Of a stretch of DNA of 64,000 nt, positions 2,509-31,454 are shown in pieces. Position 1 is the first letter of the stretch; every line of letters starts with the position of its first letter. The stretch lies in assembly GCA_965231015.1 (NCBI GenBank), contig OZ246408.1, positions 545,237-609,236 on the forward strand, given 5' to 3'. The translations under genes and the position numbers were made by a program. The notes below the pieces were generated by a model. That model was not told where the DNA came from, did no database searches, and saw only the letters and a program-made list of their open reading frames with translations. The stretch comes from an uncultured Gammaproteobacteria bacterium (GTDB lineage Bacteria > Patescibacteriota > Patescibacteriia > UBA9934 > CAZDDW01).

Positions 2509-2745
2509 CTATAGGAGAGGGGGTGGACTATTGTTGTGGTCTCTTAGTGAAGCACTCACCACCAGCGAGACCGCTCCGATTGATGTAATAATGAATCCGA
2601 TTATCACCACAGCGTCGGTGCCGAATCTGATATGGTTATGATCACGTAAGAGTAGGTAGGACCCAAGGGTCAGGGCTCCGAGAATCGAACAGATTAGACC
2701 CACAGTGCTGAAATGCTCATGGACAGGTTTCTTGAGGTGCCTCAT
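2509..2745 (-). CDS. Small two-TM membrane protein, unknown function
   Basis: The ORF track lists 2509-2754 with a GTG start. The ATG at 2745 overlaps the upstream stop as ATGA, a translational-coupling arrangement. There are two hydrophobic helices, each followed by LRDHN, which looks like an internal duplication. GC is elevated relative to the flanks. Confidence 0.5.
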   Translation of the reverse strand: MRHLKKPVHEHFSTVGLICSILGALTLGSYLLLRDHNHIRFGTDAVVIIGFIITSIGAVSLVVSASLRDHNNSPPPLL

Positions 2746-3227
2746 TCCATGCACTCCGCTTCGCGGGCTGGGTCACAGCTCCACTTGCACCCGTCTTCTA
2801 GCAGAATATCAGCAAACATGAGATCGAACAGGTTCGGGCTCAAGCCCAATCGAATCGAGGAGACGTCACCGTATGGGAAGCACTCATAGGCAAACAGTGG
2901 CTTGTACTGATGTCCGTCTGGAAGGTCGACCCAACCGTCAGGGGCGTCGTGGACTGCTCGGTACACGAGCGTGCTCTGGAAGCACCGGTCCCAACCTATG
3001 ATGACGTTGTCCCCAACCTTCTCTGTCGGCGCACAGACCGTGTTGGTGATCTTCCAGGACCCGACCGAGGAGGTGGTCGAGTTCATGTCGGTTCCCCGCT
3101 GGTCGATCATCCTGGCTTCCCTGATCACCGTGAAGATGACGAGAATCAACAGCAGAAGTCCGATCGGGATAACGGCCTTTTTGCTAATCCACTTTTCAAG
3201 CCAAAGCTTGATTCCTTGAATGAACAT
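2742..3227 (-). CDS. Membrane-anchored Cys-containing protein, unknown function
   Basis: 161-aa ORF with an N-terminal TM anchor (AVIPIGLLLLILVIFTVI), then a domain of about 110 aa containing 7 Cys. A strong SD (GAAGGGGG) lies 7 nt upstream of the ATG. GC is elevated. Confidence 0.55.
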   Translation of the reverse strand: MFIQGIKLWLEKWISKKAVIPIGLLLLILVIFTVIREARMIDQRGTDMNSTTSSVGSWKITNTVCAPTEKVGDNVIIGWDRCFQSTLVYRAVHDAPDGWVDLPDGHQYKPLFAYECFPYGDVSSIRLGLSPNLFDLMFADILLEDGCKWSCDPAREAECME

Positions 3228-3323
3228 GTCGTACCCCCTTCTCTCTTCTGAGAAATAAGGTTAGCAAATAAAGAGGGGTTGGTCAAGGAGGTTGACCCGG
3301 TTTTCTTTGGGTTGTTCTTATGG

Positions 3324-12059: not shown

Positions 12060-12119
12060 CGAATCTGTTTTTGGGTCAATAGCATAAAAAAATTATGAAA
12101 TTAACTTAAATAAAGAGAA

Positions 12120-12151
12120 GAACGCCGATCCGTGAAGTTGGAAAGGCGTTC
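12120..12151 (-). terminator. Terminator-like hairpin after the 303-aa island gene
   Basis: GAACGCC-18 nt-GGCGTTC, followed on the minus strand by CUUCUCUUUAUUU. Confidence 0.45.
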
Positions 12152-12177
12152 GTGAGGTAGGGGTTGCGATCGAAGTC

Positions 12178-13089
12178 CTAGGGGGTGGACTCCTCGTTGA
12201 GCAGCTCCGGGTCGATGTTGTCGGTCAGGATCCCGGAGAGATCCGCGATTAGGCGGTTTCTGACGAATGGGTCCAGACCGGGCTCCAGCTCTTGGAAGCG
12301 GAGTTCGCGGATGCGCTCTTTGAGCTGGGCGTTTTTGCCCTTGGTGTACTCGGTCAGGCCAAGCACCCATTGGCGCTGCCAGGCCTGATGAGCGCGCAGC
12401 TCGCCCTTGCTCGGAGCTGGCGAACGCTTCGGGGTGAGCCGCGAGCGCACCGACTTGACCGTAGGAGTACCCTTGGGTACCGCCTTCGCCTCCGGCTTGG
12501 TGCCGGTTCCCTGCCCGAGTGTTTGCTGTTTCGGGTTCGCAGCTCCGGGAAGTTGGCCGACGAGCGAAGGAGCGGCAGGGTGCTCCGTGTTGGTAGGTTC
12601 GTCCGCCTTCGCCTTCGCCTCCGGCTTGGTGGCTCCGGGCAGTGCACCCTTGAGAACGGGTTCAGCCGGTGGCTCGTTAGTTCCCTCGTGCGGATCCGGC
12701 CTGCCGAGAATCGCGGCCGCCTCGCTTTCGAGCGGCCTGCGCTCGAGGTTGTGCCGCGCCGTCAAGTACTCGATCATGCACGGCAGGTAAACCTCGAGAT
12801 CGAACTCGTAGTCCAGGTCGTGCCCGGCAGCCTCGAGCTCTTGCTTGATGGCGGCAAGCGGGTCAGCCTCACCGGCCTTGGTATCCGAGGCCCTGAACAG
12901 GTCCTTCGGAAACTCGACCTTGAGCGGGTCGCCCAAGATCTGCTCGGCTCGCTCGTTAAAGTACTGTTCCGCCTCCGGCTCGGAAACAGCCGCTTCGAAC
13001 CGAGGGCTTGACTGGTCGACCCCGTCAGTGCGCTCACCGCGCAGTACGGCCAGACACGCGTCCAGAAACGCCAAAATTTTCGGATCCAT
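12178..13089 (-). CDS. Hypothetical protein (GC3-rich island gene A)
   Basis: 303-aa ORF whose codon third positions are almost all G/C in this frame. A strong SD (GGGAGGGAGGAAGCA) sits directly upstream of the ATG. It has a Pro/Ala/Lys-rich central linker with TKPEAKA repeats. I recognise no family. Confidence 0.6.
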   Translation of the reverse strand: MDPKILAFLDACLAVLRGERTDGVDQSSPRFEAAVSEPEAEQYFNERAEQILGDPLKVEFPKDLFRASDTKAGEADPLAAIKQELEAAGHDLDYEFDLEVYLPCMIEYLTARHNLERRPLESEAAAILGRPDPHEGTNEPPAEPVLKGALPGATKPEAKAKADEPTNTEHPAAPSLVGQLPGAANPKQQTLGQGTGTKPEAKAVPKGTPTVKSVRSRLTPKRSPAPSKGELRAHQAWQRQWVLGLTEYTKGKNAQLKERIRELRFQELEPGLDPFVRNRLIADLSGILTDNIDPELLNEESTP

Positions 13090-13192
13090 TGCTTCCTCCC
13101 TCCCGTATTTTTTGTGTTCGGTTTTTTAATTTTTCACCATAAGTCAATTTGGCGGTGTTCCGCCACAAAGAAAGAATGGCGGGAGACAGCTA

Positions 13193-13272
13193 AAAATAGC
13201 ACAAAAACAGACTTTTGTCAAGTTCTAGACACAAAGTACATACTTGACAAATATGCTAAATTGTGCTAAATT
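13193..13272. promoter_or_regulatory. Back-to-back divergent promoters built on a 10-bp perfect inverted repeat
   Basis: The inverted repeat is TTTGTCAAGT (13214-13223), 18 nt, ACTTGACAAA (13242-13251). The right arm gives TTGACA (13244-13249), 17 nt, TGC-TAAATT (-10 at 13267-13272) on the plus strand. The left arm gives TTGACA (complement of 13215-13220), 16 nt, TGC-TATTTT (-10 at the complement of 13193-13198) on the minus strand. TGCTAAATT is also directly repeated (13255-13262 and 13265-13272). Confidence 0.6.
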
Positions 13273-13403
13273 TTGCGGTTGGTTGAGGGCAATTTCGTCC
13301 TTAATTACGTTCGTTTCCCCAGACTGTGGGTAAAAGGTCCCACACTCCCAACACGCGCGCATCGCAGGTAAGTCGATGCCAACCGGGAGAGAAAGAGGAA
13401 GAC

Positions 13404-15056
13404 ATGACCACCGAAAAGAACCTGACGCCGGAGCAGATCCGGCACAACGAGATGGTAAAGCGGGAAGCGCTCGAACAATTCCGCATGGCCAACGTGCGGA
13501 TGGACAAGCGGGGCGGCAACCGTCCCGTGGGCATGGGCGATCTCGTGGAGATCGTGGTCCCCGGGTTCTCCGAGGACCAGTTCGGGAACGCCGTGGCCTA
13601 CGACGAGGACGGGACGTTGATCCGCCCGCTGTGGGCGCTCGATAACGGCTTCGTGCCGGTGCTCGCCGTGCCCATGCGGCTGTGGGTCGTGTACCCGCGG
13701 TCGCGCACCTTCGCCCGGAACAAGTACGGGGTGGCGATCCCGTTCGACATCGTCTACTTCAAGGGGAAGGGACTCGGCTTGTGGAACCACAAGCTCTCGG
13801 ATCGGTGTGAGTTCCGGAACGCCGTGGCCGTGCGGCAGACCCGTACGGTCATGGTGGCCTTCGAGCCGAACCCGCGGCGCAAGGACGAGTGGCACGGCGG
13901 ATTCGTCGGCGGCAAGCACATCGTGTGGAAGCCGCACGGCAACCCGTACGAGAACTCGGGCGTCGAGATTGGCATGCCGATCGAGGTCCAGGCAAGTGAG
14001 TCCTGGGATCGGATCGAGTGTCTGCCGGCCGTGCAGACGCGTCGGGTCAAGGCCGACGGTTCCGTTGAGGAGCTCGAGGTCCAGACCGCTCTGGTGGACG
14101 TGGCGCTCAAGCCTGGACAGATTCAGTGTCGGGCGAGCGGTGTACGCCTGTGGGCGCTCGACGCTCTGGGCGTCAAGCGTCACACCGACGAGGCGGTACT
14201 GGATCGGCGGATCGCCGAGATGCTCGCCACGCGCGGTGAGCGGCTCAATCCGGAGACCGACCCGTTCTGCCTCGCGGCCAAGGCCGCCGGCAGCACGGTG
14301 GACTACCGTCTCGCGGGCGTGAACGCTCGCGAGGTGGCCATCAAGAACTCCGGCTCGATCCTGCGCCCGAAGGCGCCGAAGATCGGACACGTGGCCATCT
14401 TGCACCCGGAGACCGGAGCCAAGATCTGCGACGTGCTGATCGAGGACGTGCTCGGGGGTGACCTCTCCATCTACTCGTCGCGCGACGAGGTGATGGCTCG
14501 GTTCAATCAGCTCAAGCGCTACCGGCGCAGGAGCTACGCCGAGCACAACGACGATGACACCATCGTCGAGGCCGTCAAGGCCGTGTTCAAGCGGTTCGGC
14601 GTGCACCTGGAGGTGGACAACAAGATTCGCTCCCAGGTCGGCGAGGACGCCACCCGCGCTCTGCTCGAGCGGCTGATCTCCCGGGGGAGCATTCGCTTCA
14701 AGCCGGCGCGGAGCCGCTCCGAGCTCGTGGTGAGTGCCTACGCGGTGCTCGGCCTCGAGTCCTCTGACGCGGACGAGGACAGCGTGTTCAAGCGCTTCCG
14801 CGAGCTCTACTTCGTCAAGAAGGGCAAGGTGGAGCGGGAGGATCCGGCCGTGATGGTCCTCTACAAGTCTCCGGGCTACAGGTCGAACCCCAACCAGAAC
14901 AAGGGGTACAACGACCGCCGGGCACTTATGCGAACCGCGGGAGAGCACCTGATGGGTGCGGACCGGTTCAAGACGGCGCTCACCCCGCCGGAGGAGCCGA
15001 AGTCCGAGTTCGACAACGAGGCCGAGGAGCTTCGCAGCTCGTCCGACGACGAGTAG
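13404..15056 (+). CDS. Hypothetical protein (GC3-rich island gene B)
   Basis: The ORF track lists 13326-15056. I prefer the ATG at 13404 because it is preceded by the SD AAGAGGAAG. About 550 aa, GC3-rich in this frame only, with a soluble-looking amino acid composition and no motif I recognise. Confidence 0.6.
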   Translation: MTTEKNLTPEQIRHNEMVKREALEQFRMANVRMDKRGGNRPVGMGDLVEIVVPGFSEDQFGNAVAYDEDGTLIRPLWALDNGFVPVLAVPMRLWVVYPRSRTFARNKYGVAIPFDIVYFKGKGLGLWNHKLSDRCEFRNAVAVRQTRTVMVAFEPNPRRKDEWHGGFVGGKHIVWKPHGNPYENSGVEIGMPIEVQASESWDRIECLPAVQTRRVKADGSVEELEVQTALVDVALKPGQIQCRASGVRLWALDALGVKRHTDEAVLDRRIAEMLATRGERLNPETDPFCLAAKAAGSTVDYRLAGVNAREVAIKNSGSILRPKAPKIGHVAILHPETGAKICDVLIEDVLGGDLSIYSSRDEVMARFNQLKRYRRRSYAEHNDDDTIVEAVKAVFKRFGVHLEVDNKIRSQVGEDATRALLERLISRGSIRFKPARSRSELVVSAYAVLGLESSDADEDSVFKRFRELYFVKKGKVEREDPAVMVLYKSPGYRSNPNQNKGYNDRRALMRTAGEHLMGADRFKTALTPPEEPKSEFDNEAEELRSSSDDE

Positions 15057-15064
15057 ATCCTACC

Positions 15065-15088
15065 AAAAAAACAGCCGGCAACCGGCTG
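15065..15088 (-). terminator. Rho-independent terminator of the 15140-15982 gene
   Basis: The minus-strand RNA reads CAGCCGG-UUG-CCGGCUG followed by UUUUUUU. Confidence 0.6.
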
Positions 15089-15100
15089 CCTTCCAAACAG

Positions 15101-15140
15101 AGGGCGCTCATCACAACGATGTGCGCCCTTATCATTTTAT
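15101..15140 (+). terminator. Terminator-like hairpin for island gene B
   Basis: AGGGCGC-15 nt-GCGCCCT, followed by UAUCAUUUUAUU on the plus strand. Confidence 0.4.
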
Positions 15141-15982
15141 TAATAAAGATCAGTTAGTTCCATTGTGCCATCTTCATAAATCCAAGCATGAAACTGTCCA
15201 ATCTTGGTCATTCCTTTTCCTGAAATATCAACAGCATAGGCCTCAATCAAATGAGTTCGGTTATCTTTTAGCTTTTGAGGTATATCAATATGCGCATTAA
15301 AGCCATGATAACTATCGTACAAACATCCTGAAAAAGCACTTAAAAGATCTTGCCTGGAATTCTCGGCAATAACGGTGTCCATATAGAAACCATCTCCGTA
15401 GATCATAACTGGCACCCGAATATTATCAACATTATAGGTGTCAAAATCAATGGCCCAACCTGAAACGACATCACTTCTGGCAGGGATATCATCAAAGCTA
15501 CCTTGAACTCCATCGTTGATTGGATCCATGGTTATACTTCCAATGTAGGCTACTTCAGAGCCAGACCAAACTACCTCATCATGTGAGGCAAAAACGTAAA
15601 TAGTGTGTGTCTGTCCATCGTACAAAGTTGGATTTACTTCCCACCCAAAACCACTTTTTAAGGACACGTTTTCATCGTAGTACTCATAGACATCATATCG
15701 GGACAAGTAAGTAGTTTGTTGACCTAGGATTTCGTTGTAATTAAAAGTATCGGAAAGAGTGAAAAAAACATACATCGGTGTTTCGGAATCAGTGGTGTCA
15801 ACAACCCAACCACGTACCATGGCACTGTTGTTGCAAGAGGAATCAGTTTGTCCCTGGATATTGTCAACCGAACCCTCGATTGTTCCTGCAGCCTTTGTTA
15901 TGTTTGAGGTGAAATAAAATCCACCGGATCCGATTGCAACTGCCAACGTGGCAATCAGAAATCCCTTGAAGAAATAATTCAT
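15140..15982 (-). CDS. Secreted or membrane-anchored protein with two tandem repeat modules, unknown function
   Basis: Start moved to Met25 (MNYFFKGFLIATLAVAIG signal/anchor), which removes the overlap with tatD. There are two similar modules: GSVDNIQG...VRGWVVD...THTIYVFA and GSFDDIPA...VSGWAIDF...THLIEAYAVD. Confidence 0.6.
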   Translation of the reverse strand: MNYFFKGFLIATLAVAIGSGGFYFTSNITKAAGTIEGSVDNIQGQTDSSCNNSAMVRGWVVDTTDSETPMYVFFTLSDTFNYNEILGQQTTYLSRYDVYEYYDENVSLKSGFGWEVNPTLYDGQTHTIYVFASHDEVVWSGSEVAYIGSITMDPINDGVQGSFDDIPARSDVVSGWAIDFDTYNVDNIRVPVMIYGDGFYMDTVIAENSRQDLLSAFSGCLYDSYHGFNAHIDIPQKLKDNRTHLIEAYAVDISGKGMTKIGQFHAWIYEDGTMELTDLY

Positions 15983-19671: not shown

Positions 19672-20832
19672 TTAAAATTCTATGATTTCAGAATTTTTCA
19701 AAGCATTATTGACCAACAATTCAACATTGAGCTTTCCTTCTTCTTCACGAGCAACCCTGACTGATCCCTTGGTTACTGGATGGCGCGGCACAAACAAACT
19801 GCAGCAGTCACCGTGCGGAACAATGGATTGTTCGTATGTATTAATGGTCTTGGCTTCATTAATGATTTCATTCTTGTCCATACCGATTAACGGTCTAAGG
19901 ATTGGAATGGTCACCGCATCATTAATAGCGGCAATATTTTCAAGGGTCTGTGATGCAACTTGTCCTACCGCCTCTCCGGTAACGAGTGCTCTGGCTTTTT
20001 CTTTTTTGGCAACGGCTTCAGCTATGCGATACATAAACCGGCGATAAAGTACGACTCGATAGTCGCCTTTGGTTTCCTGAACAATTGCTTTTTGAATTTC
20101 AAGAAATGGAACAAGGTATAGCTTGGTTTTTATTTGCCATCCTGACAGTATTTCAGCTAATTCAACAACTTTATCAACACTGGCTCGATCGGTTTGGGGG
20201 CGCGAGTGAAAATGCACGAATACGACCTCACATCCGCGTTTCATGAGTCGCCAGCTAGCGACCGGAGAATCGATTCCTCCGGAGAGTAATGAAACGACTT
20301 TCCCGCTTGAACCAACCGGGAGTCCACCAAAAGCCCGGATCTTATCGGCAAAAACAAAAGCTTCTTGGTCGACAATCTCAATTTGAATTTCAAGATCCGG
20401 GTCTTTGATCTTCACTTTTTTATCATCGGAGTTATCCAGAATATAAGCCCCGACTTCCCGACTGACTTCCATGCTGTTCATGGGAAAAAGCTTGTTGGAG
20501 CGTCGGGTGGTCACACGGAAGGTGTCCCAGTCTAAATTTTTTGCAAAGTTCAGAGCCACTGCTTTGATTTCATCGAATTTGGCCTTGGTCTTAACGGCTG
20601 GTGAAAAATGGGACACCCCAAAAACCCGACGAAGCTGCTCGATGATTTGCTCCAGTTTTGGTTTTGACCCGAGCTCAATCAAGATTCGTCCAGCAATTCG
20701 ATTGACCGATTTGATACCAGTTCCTTTGAGGGAGTGTTTGATGTTGTTGATTAATTGGTCCTCAAAACGTTTTCGGTTTTTACCTTTTAATCCGATTTCA
20801 GCGTAGTGAACAATAAAATGAGTTGGCTTCAT
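19672..20832 (-). CDS. thiI: tRNA 4-thiouridine(8) synthase
   Basis: THUMP-like N-half and a PP-loop, SLLSGGIDSPVASW. Confidence 0.9.
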   Translation of the reverse strand: MKPTHFIVHYAEIGLKGKNRKRFEDQLINNIKHSLKGTGIKSVNRIAGRILIELGSKPKLEQIIEQLRRVFGVSHFSPAVKTKAKFDEIKAVALNFAKNLDWDTFRVTTRRSNKLFPMNSMEVSREVGAYILDNSDDKKVKIKDPDLEIQIEIVDQEAFVFADKIRAFGGLPVGSSGKVVSLLSGGIDSPVASWRLMKRGCEVVFVHFHSRPQTDRASVDKVVELAEILSGWQIKTKLYLVPFLEIQKAIVQETKGDYRVVLYRRFMYRIAEAVAKKEKARALVTGEAVGQVASQTLENIAAINDAVTIPILRPLIGMDKNEIINEAKTINTYEQSIVPHGDCCSLFVPRHPVTKGSVRVAREEEGKLNVELLVNNALKNSEIIEF

Positions 20833-31340: not shown

Positions 31341-31415
31341 TGGCTCCGAGGGCGGGGTTCGAACCCGCGACCCACTGGTTAACAGCCAGTTGCTCTGCCA
31401 CTGAGCTACCTCGGA
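31341..31415 (-). tRNA. tRNA-Asn (GUU), CCA encoded
   Basis: The minus strand reads TCCGAGGTAGCTCAGTGGCAGAGCAACTGGCTGTTAACCAGTGGGTCGCGGGTTCGAACCCCGCCCTCGGAGCCA. It forms a full cloverleaf with anticodon loop CTGTTAA. Confidence 0.95.
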
Positions 31416-31425
31416 TTGTGCCGAG

Positions 31426-31454
31426 ATATTATCAAGATCAAAGATCGTTGTCAA
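31426..31454 (-). promoter_or_regulatory. Consensus sigma70-type promoter of tRNA-Asn
   Basis: On the minus strand: TTGACA (31454-31449), 17 nt, TAATAT (31431-26). The tRNA 5' end lies 10 nt downstream. Confidence 0.65.

Follow-up and report, generated by a model that had tools for sequence, protein, structure and literature searches.

The element analysed here is a pair of promoters that lie back to back between two divergent orphan genes, orfL and orfR, in a 64,000-nt stretch of DNA from an uncultured small-genome bacterium (contig OZ246408.1; hereafter the window), and the two -35 boxes of the pair form the arms of a short palindrome. Back-to-back divergent promoter pairs, coupled via local supercoiling, are a classical class in bacteria (see PMC4469952 for pairs of Escherichia coli), and the arrangement in the window is of this known kind, an ordinary textbook divergent promoter pair. 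As in the classical pairs, the core promoters are separate and located on opposite strands, their upstream regions abut, each serves one gene and the predicted transcription starts are approximately 90 bp apart; unlike in the classical pairs, both promoters are near-identical, near-consensus copies and are conserved together with the orphan gene pair in six lineages. In the bidirectional promoters described by Warman and Grainger (bioRxiv 10.1101/2020.01.31.928960; PMC12825309), the -10 elements of the two strands overlap or are shared, the starts are typically 18 bp and sometimes 10 or 23 bp apart, and one polymerase excludes the other (PMC12825309). The window shares with these the principle that a pseudo-symmetry arising from the promoter elements themselves would give divergent transcription. 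However, its -10 boxes are 68 bp apart and its -35 boxes face each other, and with the spacing of starts predicted above the pair falls outside a class marked by a shared -10 element and starts about 18 bp apart.

Two further classes bear some resemblance to the window promoters. Putative mobile promoters are defined by segments of 50-100 nt at an identity of at least 80% (Matus-Garcia et al. 2012, PMC3488235). Here, too, a homologous promoter segment is found in front of non-homologous genes, namely orfL and a small open reading frame (ORF) in the related locus L009, but what is shared amounts to about 45 nt, 71-76% identical overall and 96% identical over a core of 23 nt, which is below the threshold. 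Extended -10 promoters with a TRTG motif, or "-16 region", were reportedly described by Voskuil and Chambliss in 1998 in Bacillus subtilis and other Gram-positive bacteria. Likewise, TGTGc or TATGc is located directly upstream of the -10 hexamer in all 12 promoters compared here, whereas in the present case the motif accompanies a perfect -35 box and occurs in an uncultured small-genome bacterium.

The intergenic region between orfL and orfR (positions 13090-13403, 314 bp) has a GC content of 44%, or 39% for positions 13090-13300, compared to 64-66% in the flanking genes, and an initial annotation of the window had described it as an AT-rich spacer amid GC-rich genes. The same annotation had placed a TTGACA on each strand with one promoter for each divergent gene, a perfect 10-bp palindrome at the -35 boxes and a tandem repeat overlapping the plus-strand -10 box, all of which are borne out by the comparison below; of its extended -10 boxes at a distance of 16-17 nt, the TGc extensions stand, but the spacer is 17 nt on both strands. 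The elements of the region are the following.

13186..13279, strandless: core with both promoters, covering approximately the interval between the two predicted transcription starts
13193..13201, minus strand: leftward extended -10 box TGcTATTTT, the hexamer being the reverse complement of 13193-13198
13214..13223, strandless: left arm of the palindrome, TTTGTCAAGT, occurring once in the window
13216..13221, minus strand: leftward -35 box TTGACA, matching the consensus hexamer at 6/6 positions
13224..13234, strandless: central element TCTAGACACAA (11 bp), adjoining the leftward -35 box, a candidate factor site
13242..13251, strandless: right arm of the palindrome, ACTTGACAAA, occurring once in the window
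13244..13249, plus strand: rightward -35 box TTGACA, matching at 6/6 positions
13254..13272, plus strand: tandem repeat of TGCTAAATT, two copies 10 bp apart (13254-13262 and 13264-13272)
13267-13272, plus strand: rightward -10 box TAAATT, with TGc directly before the hexamer

Both promoters thus have a perfect -35 box and a TGc directly preceding the -10 hexamer, and each scores 10/12 in addition to the TG; the two -35 hexamers are 22 bp apart. Transcription starts are expected 6-8 nt downstream of a -10 box. The leftward promoter would therefore start the orfL transcript at about position 13187 on the minus strand, and the rightward promoter would start the orfR transcript at about position 13278 on the plus strand. 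The strict pattern TTGACA-N11-13-TRTGnTAnnnT is found exactly twice in the window, only in these two promoters, with 0.02 matches expected, and none of 100 shuffles gave two matches. Only one other promoter in the window combines an intact TTGACA with a TG-extended -10 box; it is located upstream of a tRNA gene (31344-31415) and reads TTGACA-17-TGaTAATAT (31426-31454, minus strand). Since the tRNA promoter has the same architecture, this is the host's native form of a strong promoter.

The promoter pair is conserved well beyond the window. Six lineages carry it, represented by the window, L002/L003, L004-L007, L011, L013 and L014/L015, which together provide six orfL and six orfR promoters. 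All 12 combine cTTGACA with TRTGn-TAnnnT at a spacer length of 17 nt, a T-tract and the TRTGn motif making up the end of the spacer, and the six orfL promoters follow the narrower form TRTGc-TAnnTT. The TTGACA hexamer is perfect in all six promoters of either gene and in L009. Over the core (13186-13279), the nucleotide identity is 0.88 between the window and L002 and 0.80 between the window and L004, compared to 0.22-0.76 in the leaders and 0.51-0.81 in the coding sequences, while the 4-fold degenerate sites of the host genes are saturated (identity 0.35-0.47), with more than two synonymous substitutions per site (dS >2) in most comparisons. The core is almost invariant in the two closest relatives, with the consensus GCTAAAwATAGCAyAAAA..GACTTTTGTCAAGnTCTAGACACAA..CTTGACAAAT..GCTAAATTGTGCTAAATT; the orfR proteins of these relatives share 81% and 51% identity with that of the window.

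The strict pattern is nearly restricted to this intergenic region across approximately 150 kb of related loci, and searches with the promoter-core pattern gave no match in species-representative genomes and only two in metagenomes, L008 and L009; the promoter patterns had no match in viral contigs. L008 shares its contig with L005, which is nearly identical to L004. L009 represents a separate GC-rich island beside a holB-like gene, where the leftward promoter and TCTAGACACAA are present, the right arm is missing, and the module lies upstream of a 73-aa membrane-like ORF unrelated to orfL.

The palindrome itself appears to be a consequence of the promoters. Its arms, TTTGTCAAGT and ACTTGACAAA, form a perfect 10-bp inverted repeat across an 18-nt gap, and each consists of a -35 hexamer with its flank (cTTGACAaa), a flank which is present in 10 of the 12 promoters. 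When the intergenic region was shuffled 1000 times, 10 of the shuffles (1%) contained a perfect inverted repeat of at least 10 bp with a loop of at most 30 nt. The mirror symmetry also reaches the -10 regions, with segments 13186-13204 and 13261-13279 being 79% complementary. The initial annotation had named conservation in related loci as the test for its palindrome, and the palindrome is indeed kept in the two closest relatives; the relatives retain 9 bp per arm (TTTGTCAAG and CTTGACAAA), whereas the 10th pair is specific to the window, and the 9 bp of the left arm are found in L002, L004 and L014. The window, L002, L004 and L013 each have 22 nt between the -35 hexamers, L014 has 42 nt and L011 has 257 nt. 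Because the gap varies and L009 has no right arm at all, the palindrome is best understood as incidental to the presence of the same extended -35 element on both strands.

We consider the pair to be two independent, strong promoters of the housekeeping (sigma-70-type) class placed back to back, with the palindrome not serving as an operator, and would give this reading a probability of about 0.78. In such an arrangement, two copies of the extended -35 element facing away from each other would yield the 10-bp palindrome. As the promoters are very close, each -35 box and spacer would fall within the upstream-contact zone of the polymerase at the other promoter, and this double duty, along with TCTAGACACAA as a possible factor site, may be what has kept the approximately 90-bp core nearly frozen in the subclade of the window. 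Both promoters are probably used by the polymerase and may well be constitutively strong, and a coupling between them, as in the classical pairs, would be conceivable. Several observations nevertheless weigh against so simple an account. The -10 hexamers, TAAATT and TATTTT, each match the consensus at four of six positions, and promoter use as well as start sites are predictions from the sequence. The gap between the hexamers is exactly 22 nt in four of the six lineages, and the geometry itself could thus be selected. Finally, the spacers, TCTAGACACAA and the duplicated TGCTAAATT are conserved within the subclade beyond the usual needs of polymerase contact. This last excess makes a regulator acting on the region, perhaps on both promoters, possible, although the invariant features of the subclade would also fit a dual constraint in which each promoter lies in the upstream-contact zone of the other.

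The alternative that survives best builds on the same excess and assumes that a separate factor binds TCTAGACACAA, with or without the tandem TGCTAAATT, and co-regulates a small GC-rich regulon, the promoters themselves being ordinary. TCTAGACACAA has the same sequence in four independent settings (window, L002, L004/L006 and the non-homologous L009), while the 8 nt that follow it have diverged, differing at seven of eight positions between the window and L004. Relative to the leftward promoter it covers positions of about -37 to -48, which is a classical activator position; in class I and class II activation, activators classically sit at such upstream positions. Moreover, TCTAGACACAA is not A/T-rich, unlike an UP element. 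On the other hand, it is absent from L011, L013 and L014 even though the promoters are kept there, the window has a single copy, and no candidate regulator was found. The CTAGACA within the element is also one base away from CTTGACA and could be a decayed duplicate of a -35 box. A separate factor therefore seems possible but on the doubtful side. A third, rightward promoter starting from TAGACA (13226-13231) was likewise considered and rejected, as no acceptable -10 box is present at 16-18 nt in any relative.

The tandem repeat allows for a similar range of interpretations. The two copies of TGCTAAATT are the only ones in the window; the second is the rightward extended -10 box, and the first constitutes another TG-extended -10 box, 10 bp upstream and without a -35 box. 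GCTAAATTGTGCTAAATT shows no variation among the window, L002 and L004, and the repeat is kept in the two closest relatives, while L011, L013 and L014 do not have it.

The initial annotation had expected a single dimeric regulator or a sigma-competition switch to control both genes at once. In the first of these models, the palindrome would be a true operator, with one dimer sitting on both arms and blocking or activating the two promoters jointly. In favor of such an operator, the 9-bp arms are perfect in the window, L002 and L004, the 22-nt gap is seen again in L013 and purifying selection on the entire core is strong. However, the half-sites are not distinct from the polymerase elements: the arms coincide with the -35 box and flank of 10 of the 12 promoters regardless of whether they can pair. 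Their spacing is not fixed either, given hexamer gaps of 22, 22, 22, 22, 42 and 257 nt, and L009 retains a functional-looking left half with no right arm. In addition, the arm centres are 28 bp apart, which places them on different faces of the helix, and neither neighbouring protein has a recognisable DNA-binding domain: none was detected in the domain and profile searches, and the OB-fold matches from Foldseek are insignificant; a regulator encoded elsewhere would still be possible. The model thus does not hold up well, and we regard an operator at the palindrome as improbable.

The gene pair served by the promoters occupies the same chromosomal position in all lineages, which bears on the remaining alternatives. 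The genes are the following.

12178..13089, minus strand: orfL, a 303-aa orphan with 64% GC, a GC content at third codon positions (GC3) of 0.77 and a disordered Pro/Ala/Lys-rich centre
13404..15056, plus strand: orfR, a 550-aa orphan with 66% GC and a GC3 of 0.90

Together they make up a GC-rich block of 3 kb (approximately 12110-15100) in a genome of about 43% GC, with a V-type ATPase operon to the left and a 280-aa ORF, tatD, cvpA and metG to the right. The slot formed by the V-ATPase operon, orfL (minus), orfR (plus) and tatD is common to all six lineages. Since the slot is the same while host synonymous sites are saturated, the pair is evidently old and vertically inherited, and the word "cassette", which the initial annotation had used for the pair, is not supported: the genes are syntenic and not mobile. 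The 280-aa ORF between orfR and tatD (15140-15982, minus strand) has no match in Pfam and carries a membrane anchor at its N-terminus. Only the window and L002 (3223-4065) have this ORF, and orfR directly adjoins tatD in L004, L011, L013 and L014.

Given its size of 3 kb, its high GC content against 43% in the genome, its divergent genes and its palindromic spacer, the block could at first sight be taken for a recently integrated mobile element (for example a small plasmid, a virus or a gene cassette) with its control or origin region, in which the palindrome would serve as a replication or recombination site, and the layout does superficially resemble that of small ambisense replicons. Such an origin is very improbable, however, considering the shared slot in six lineages at synonymous saturation. 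There are no terminal direct or inverted repeats flanking the block, and no integrase, Rep or other mobility domain within it. The DNA of the 3-kb block had no match among phages and plasmids, the orfR protein had none among phages, and the protein patterns had none in viral contigs. A genome scan with V-ATPase subunit I gave a single unrelated match at 40%, and no empty site was found among the few available relatives. That the palindrome and the promoter-like matches are a chance product of an AT-rich spacer, where -10-like words abound and a 10-bp perfect inverted repeat appears in 1% of shuffles, is practically negligible and refuted by conservation in 12 of 12 promoters, the two strict matches against 0.02 expected moreover pointing away from each other and being suitably spaced from the gene that each serves.

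Both genes are genuinely coding in their annotated frames, as judged from the codon-position GC contents (0.66, 0.42 and 0.90 for positions 1, 2 and 3 in orfR; 0.69, 0.45 and 0.77 in orfL) and from ratios of non-synonymous to synonymous substitution rates (dN/dS) of 0.26-0.57 for orfR and 0.28-0.51 for orfL. They constitute a fast-evolving orphan gene pair. Neither protein had a match in Pfam, PHROGs, PADLOC or PDB-sequence profile searches, and the HPD motif of J-domain proteins is present in none of the six orfR members. Relatives of orfR are scarce: two were found among 5.8 billion clusters and three more distant ones in an exhaustive search among 1.84 billion representatives, and a word-index search with a six-sequence profile retrieved no further members. 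An AlphaFold2 model of orfR from six sequences reached a predicted local distance difference test score (pLDDT) of 71.9 and a predicted template modelling score (pTM) of 0.43, whereas with three sequences the pLDDT was 41 and the model unusable. In the former, the N-terminal half would be rich in β-strands and the C-terminal half helical. A Foldseek search of the model against the PDB returned nothing below E = 0.02, the weak matches being OB-fold proteins. Between the window and L002, the identity at 4-fold degenerate sites is 0.68 in orfR, compared to 0.49 in orfL and 0.35-0.38 in the host genes, which could reflect either that synonymous sites are strongly constrained or that orfR alleles were exchanged more recently.

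The transcripts predicted from the two promoters would begin with 5′ leaders and end at likely terminators, as follows.

13280..13403, plus strand: orfR 5′ leader, about 125 nt, with ribosome-binding site AGAGGA and three hairpins
13280-13307, plus strand: first hairpin of the orfR leader (SL1), proximal to the 5′ end
13325-13344, plus strand: second hairpin (SL2), with stems TGTGGG, GTGAGC and GGATCG in the three leaders compared
13359-13379, plus strand: third hairpin (SL3), with stem GCATCG or GCGTTG enclosed by CTCCC/GGGAG
15101..15141, plus strand: likely orfR terminator, a hairpin AGGGCGC...GCGCCCT followed by TATCATTTTATT
13090..13187, minus strand: orfL 5′ leader, about 98 nt, with ribosome-binding site GGAGG, poorly conserved (identity 0.22-0.38)
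12120..12151, minus strand: likely orfL terminator, a hairpin GAACGCC...GGCGTTC preceding a T-rich tract; its 18-nt loop keeps it out of the output of the scan tool

The orfR leaders of the window (13280-13403), L002 (1279-1407) and L004 (1899-2025) independently fold to the same three hairpins. The SL2 stem sequences differ entirely among the three relatives, SL3 has two compensatory pairs, and in L004 the loops of SL2 and SL3 are near-identical, with the sequence CAACC(G/A)TAAGT. With three sequences and a fold z-score of -1.16, these observations are suggestive only of a conserved three-hairpin leader, and a search of Rfam gave no match at the leaders. The initial annotation had also proposed that CGGTTGG (13276) pairs with CCAACCG (13379); the two words are present and complementary, but the pairing is absent from the minimum-free-energy folds and is not conserved, L004 reading ACCTCGA and CCA-CCG at these positions and L002 having one mismatch.

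The sustained GC richness is the unexplained part of the locus and the most unusual thing about it. The host ORFs in the window have a GC3 of 0.42 +/- 0.06, compared to 0.77 in orfL and 0.89-0.90 in orfR, and in all six lineages the pair is richer in GC than its host, with a GC3 of 0.65-0.92 in orfR against 0.33-0.52 in host genes. The bias extends to codon and amino acid usage, as orfR has 31 AAG and no AAA codons for lysine, whereas host genes have 77 AAA and 37 AAG, and arginine makes up 9.6% of orfR compared to 3.0% in the host. Because host synonymous sites are saturated, the composition of the pair has evidently not drifted to the level of the genome in the time available, and since the non-conserved orfL leader is not GC-rich, the force that maintains GC content, whatever it is, acts on the coding sequence. 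Polarised substitutions from GC to AT and from AT to GC number 24 and 6 in orfR, 19 and 8 in orfL, and 25 and 31 in tatD; the counts are ambiguous between a slow decay of GC and a parsimony artefact. The high GC3 might also be an ordinary codon bias linked to high expression; no ribosomal-protein or EF-Tu genes are present in the window for a comparison.

The other promoters that match the strict pattern in the related loci all precede GC-rich ORFs that are embedded in AT-rich DNA.

1191-1219 of L009, minus strand: strict promoter before a small ORF with a GC3 of 0.86
2072-2100 of L009, minus strand: strict promoter before an ORF with a GC3 of 0.75
20075-20103 of L011, plus strand: strict promoter before a 46-aa Cys/His-rich ORF (20075-20292 including the promoter)

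The 46-aa ORF of L011 has a GC content of 53-67% in surroundings of 20-40%. Such a distribution suggests that there is a class of GC-rich genes linked to a single promoter subfamily. A more specific proposal, that the promoter pair is one copy of a clade-specific expression module marking GC-rich orphan genes (GC3 0.72-0.92), is in our view unlikely; the candidate module would consist of cTTGACAAAAg...TTTTGTGcTAtaTT, joined by TCTAGACACAA in the subclade, in a genome of about 1 Mb and about 43% GC. The window contains another GC-rich ORF on the minus strand (2742-3227), which encodes 161 aa with an N-terminal membrane anchor and whose GC3 of 0.72 exceeds the host mean by five standard deviations. 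A promoter at approximately 3255-3283 precedes it and reads TTGACC-17-TGcTAACCT; the ORF is located just downstream of the terminators of the V-ATPase operon.

Two other regions of the window were noted in passing. On the minus strand at approximately 2150-2410, a promoter-like TTGACC-17-TAATCT precedes a stretch of about 250 nt that contains no convincing ORF, after which comes a terminator hairpin with a T-run, and the segment may represent an unannotated non-coding RNA; a permissive Rfam scan of this candidate gave no match. At 59813-63067, also on the minus strand, adjacent ORFs of 470 and 612 aa show weak matches to type IV secretion coupling proteins of the TraG-TrwB ATPase kind.

For the biology of this group, the comparison provides a conserved promoter definition (cTTGACAaa, a 17-nt spacer and TRTGn-TAnnnT) in an uncultured small-genome clade without mapped promoters, and the pair itself represents a compact bidirectional part. 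Should the expression module exist, it would imply either selection on the composition of the genes or their mRNA, or a dedicated factor controlling a regulon. If composition is indeed what is selected, the locus would offer a clean natural case of base composition being held against mutation pressure.
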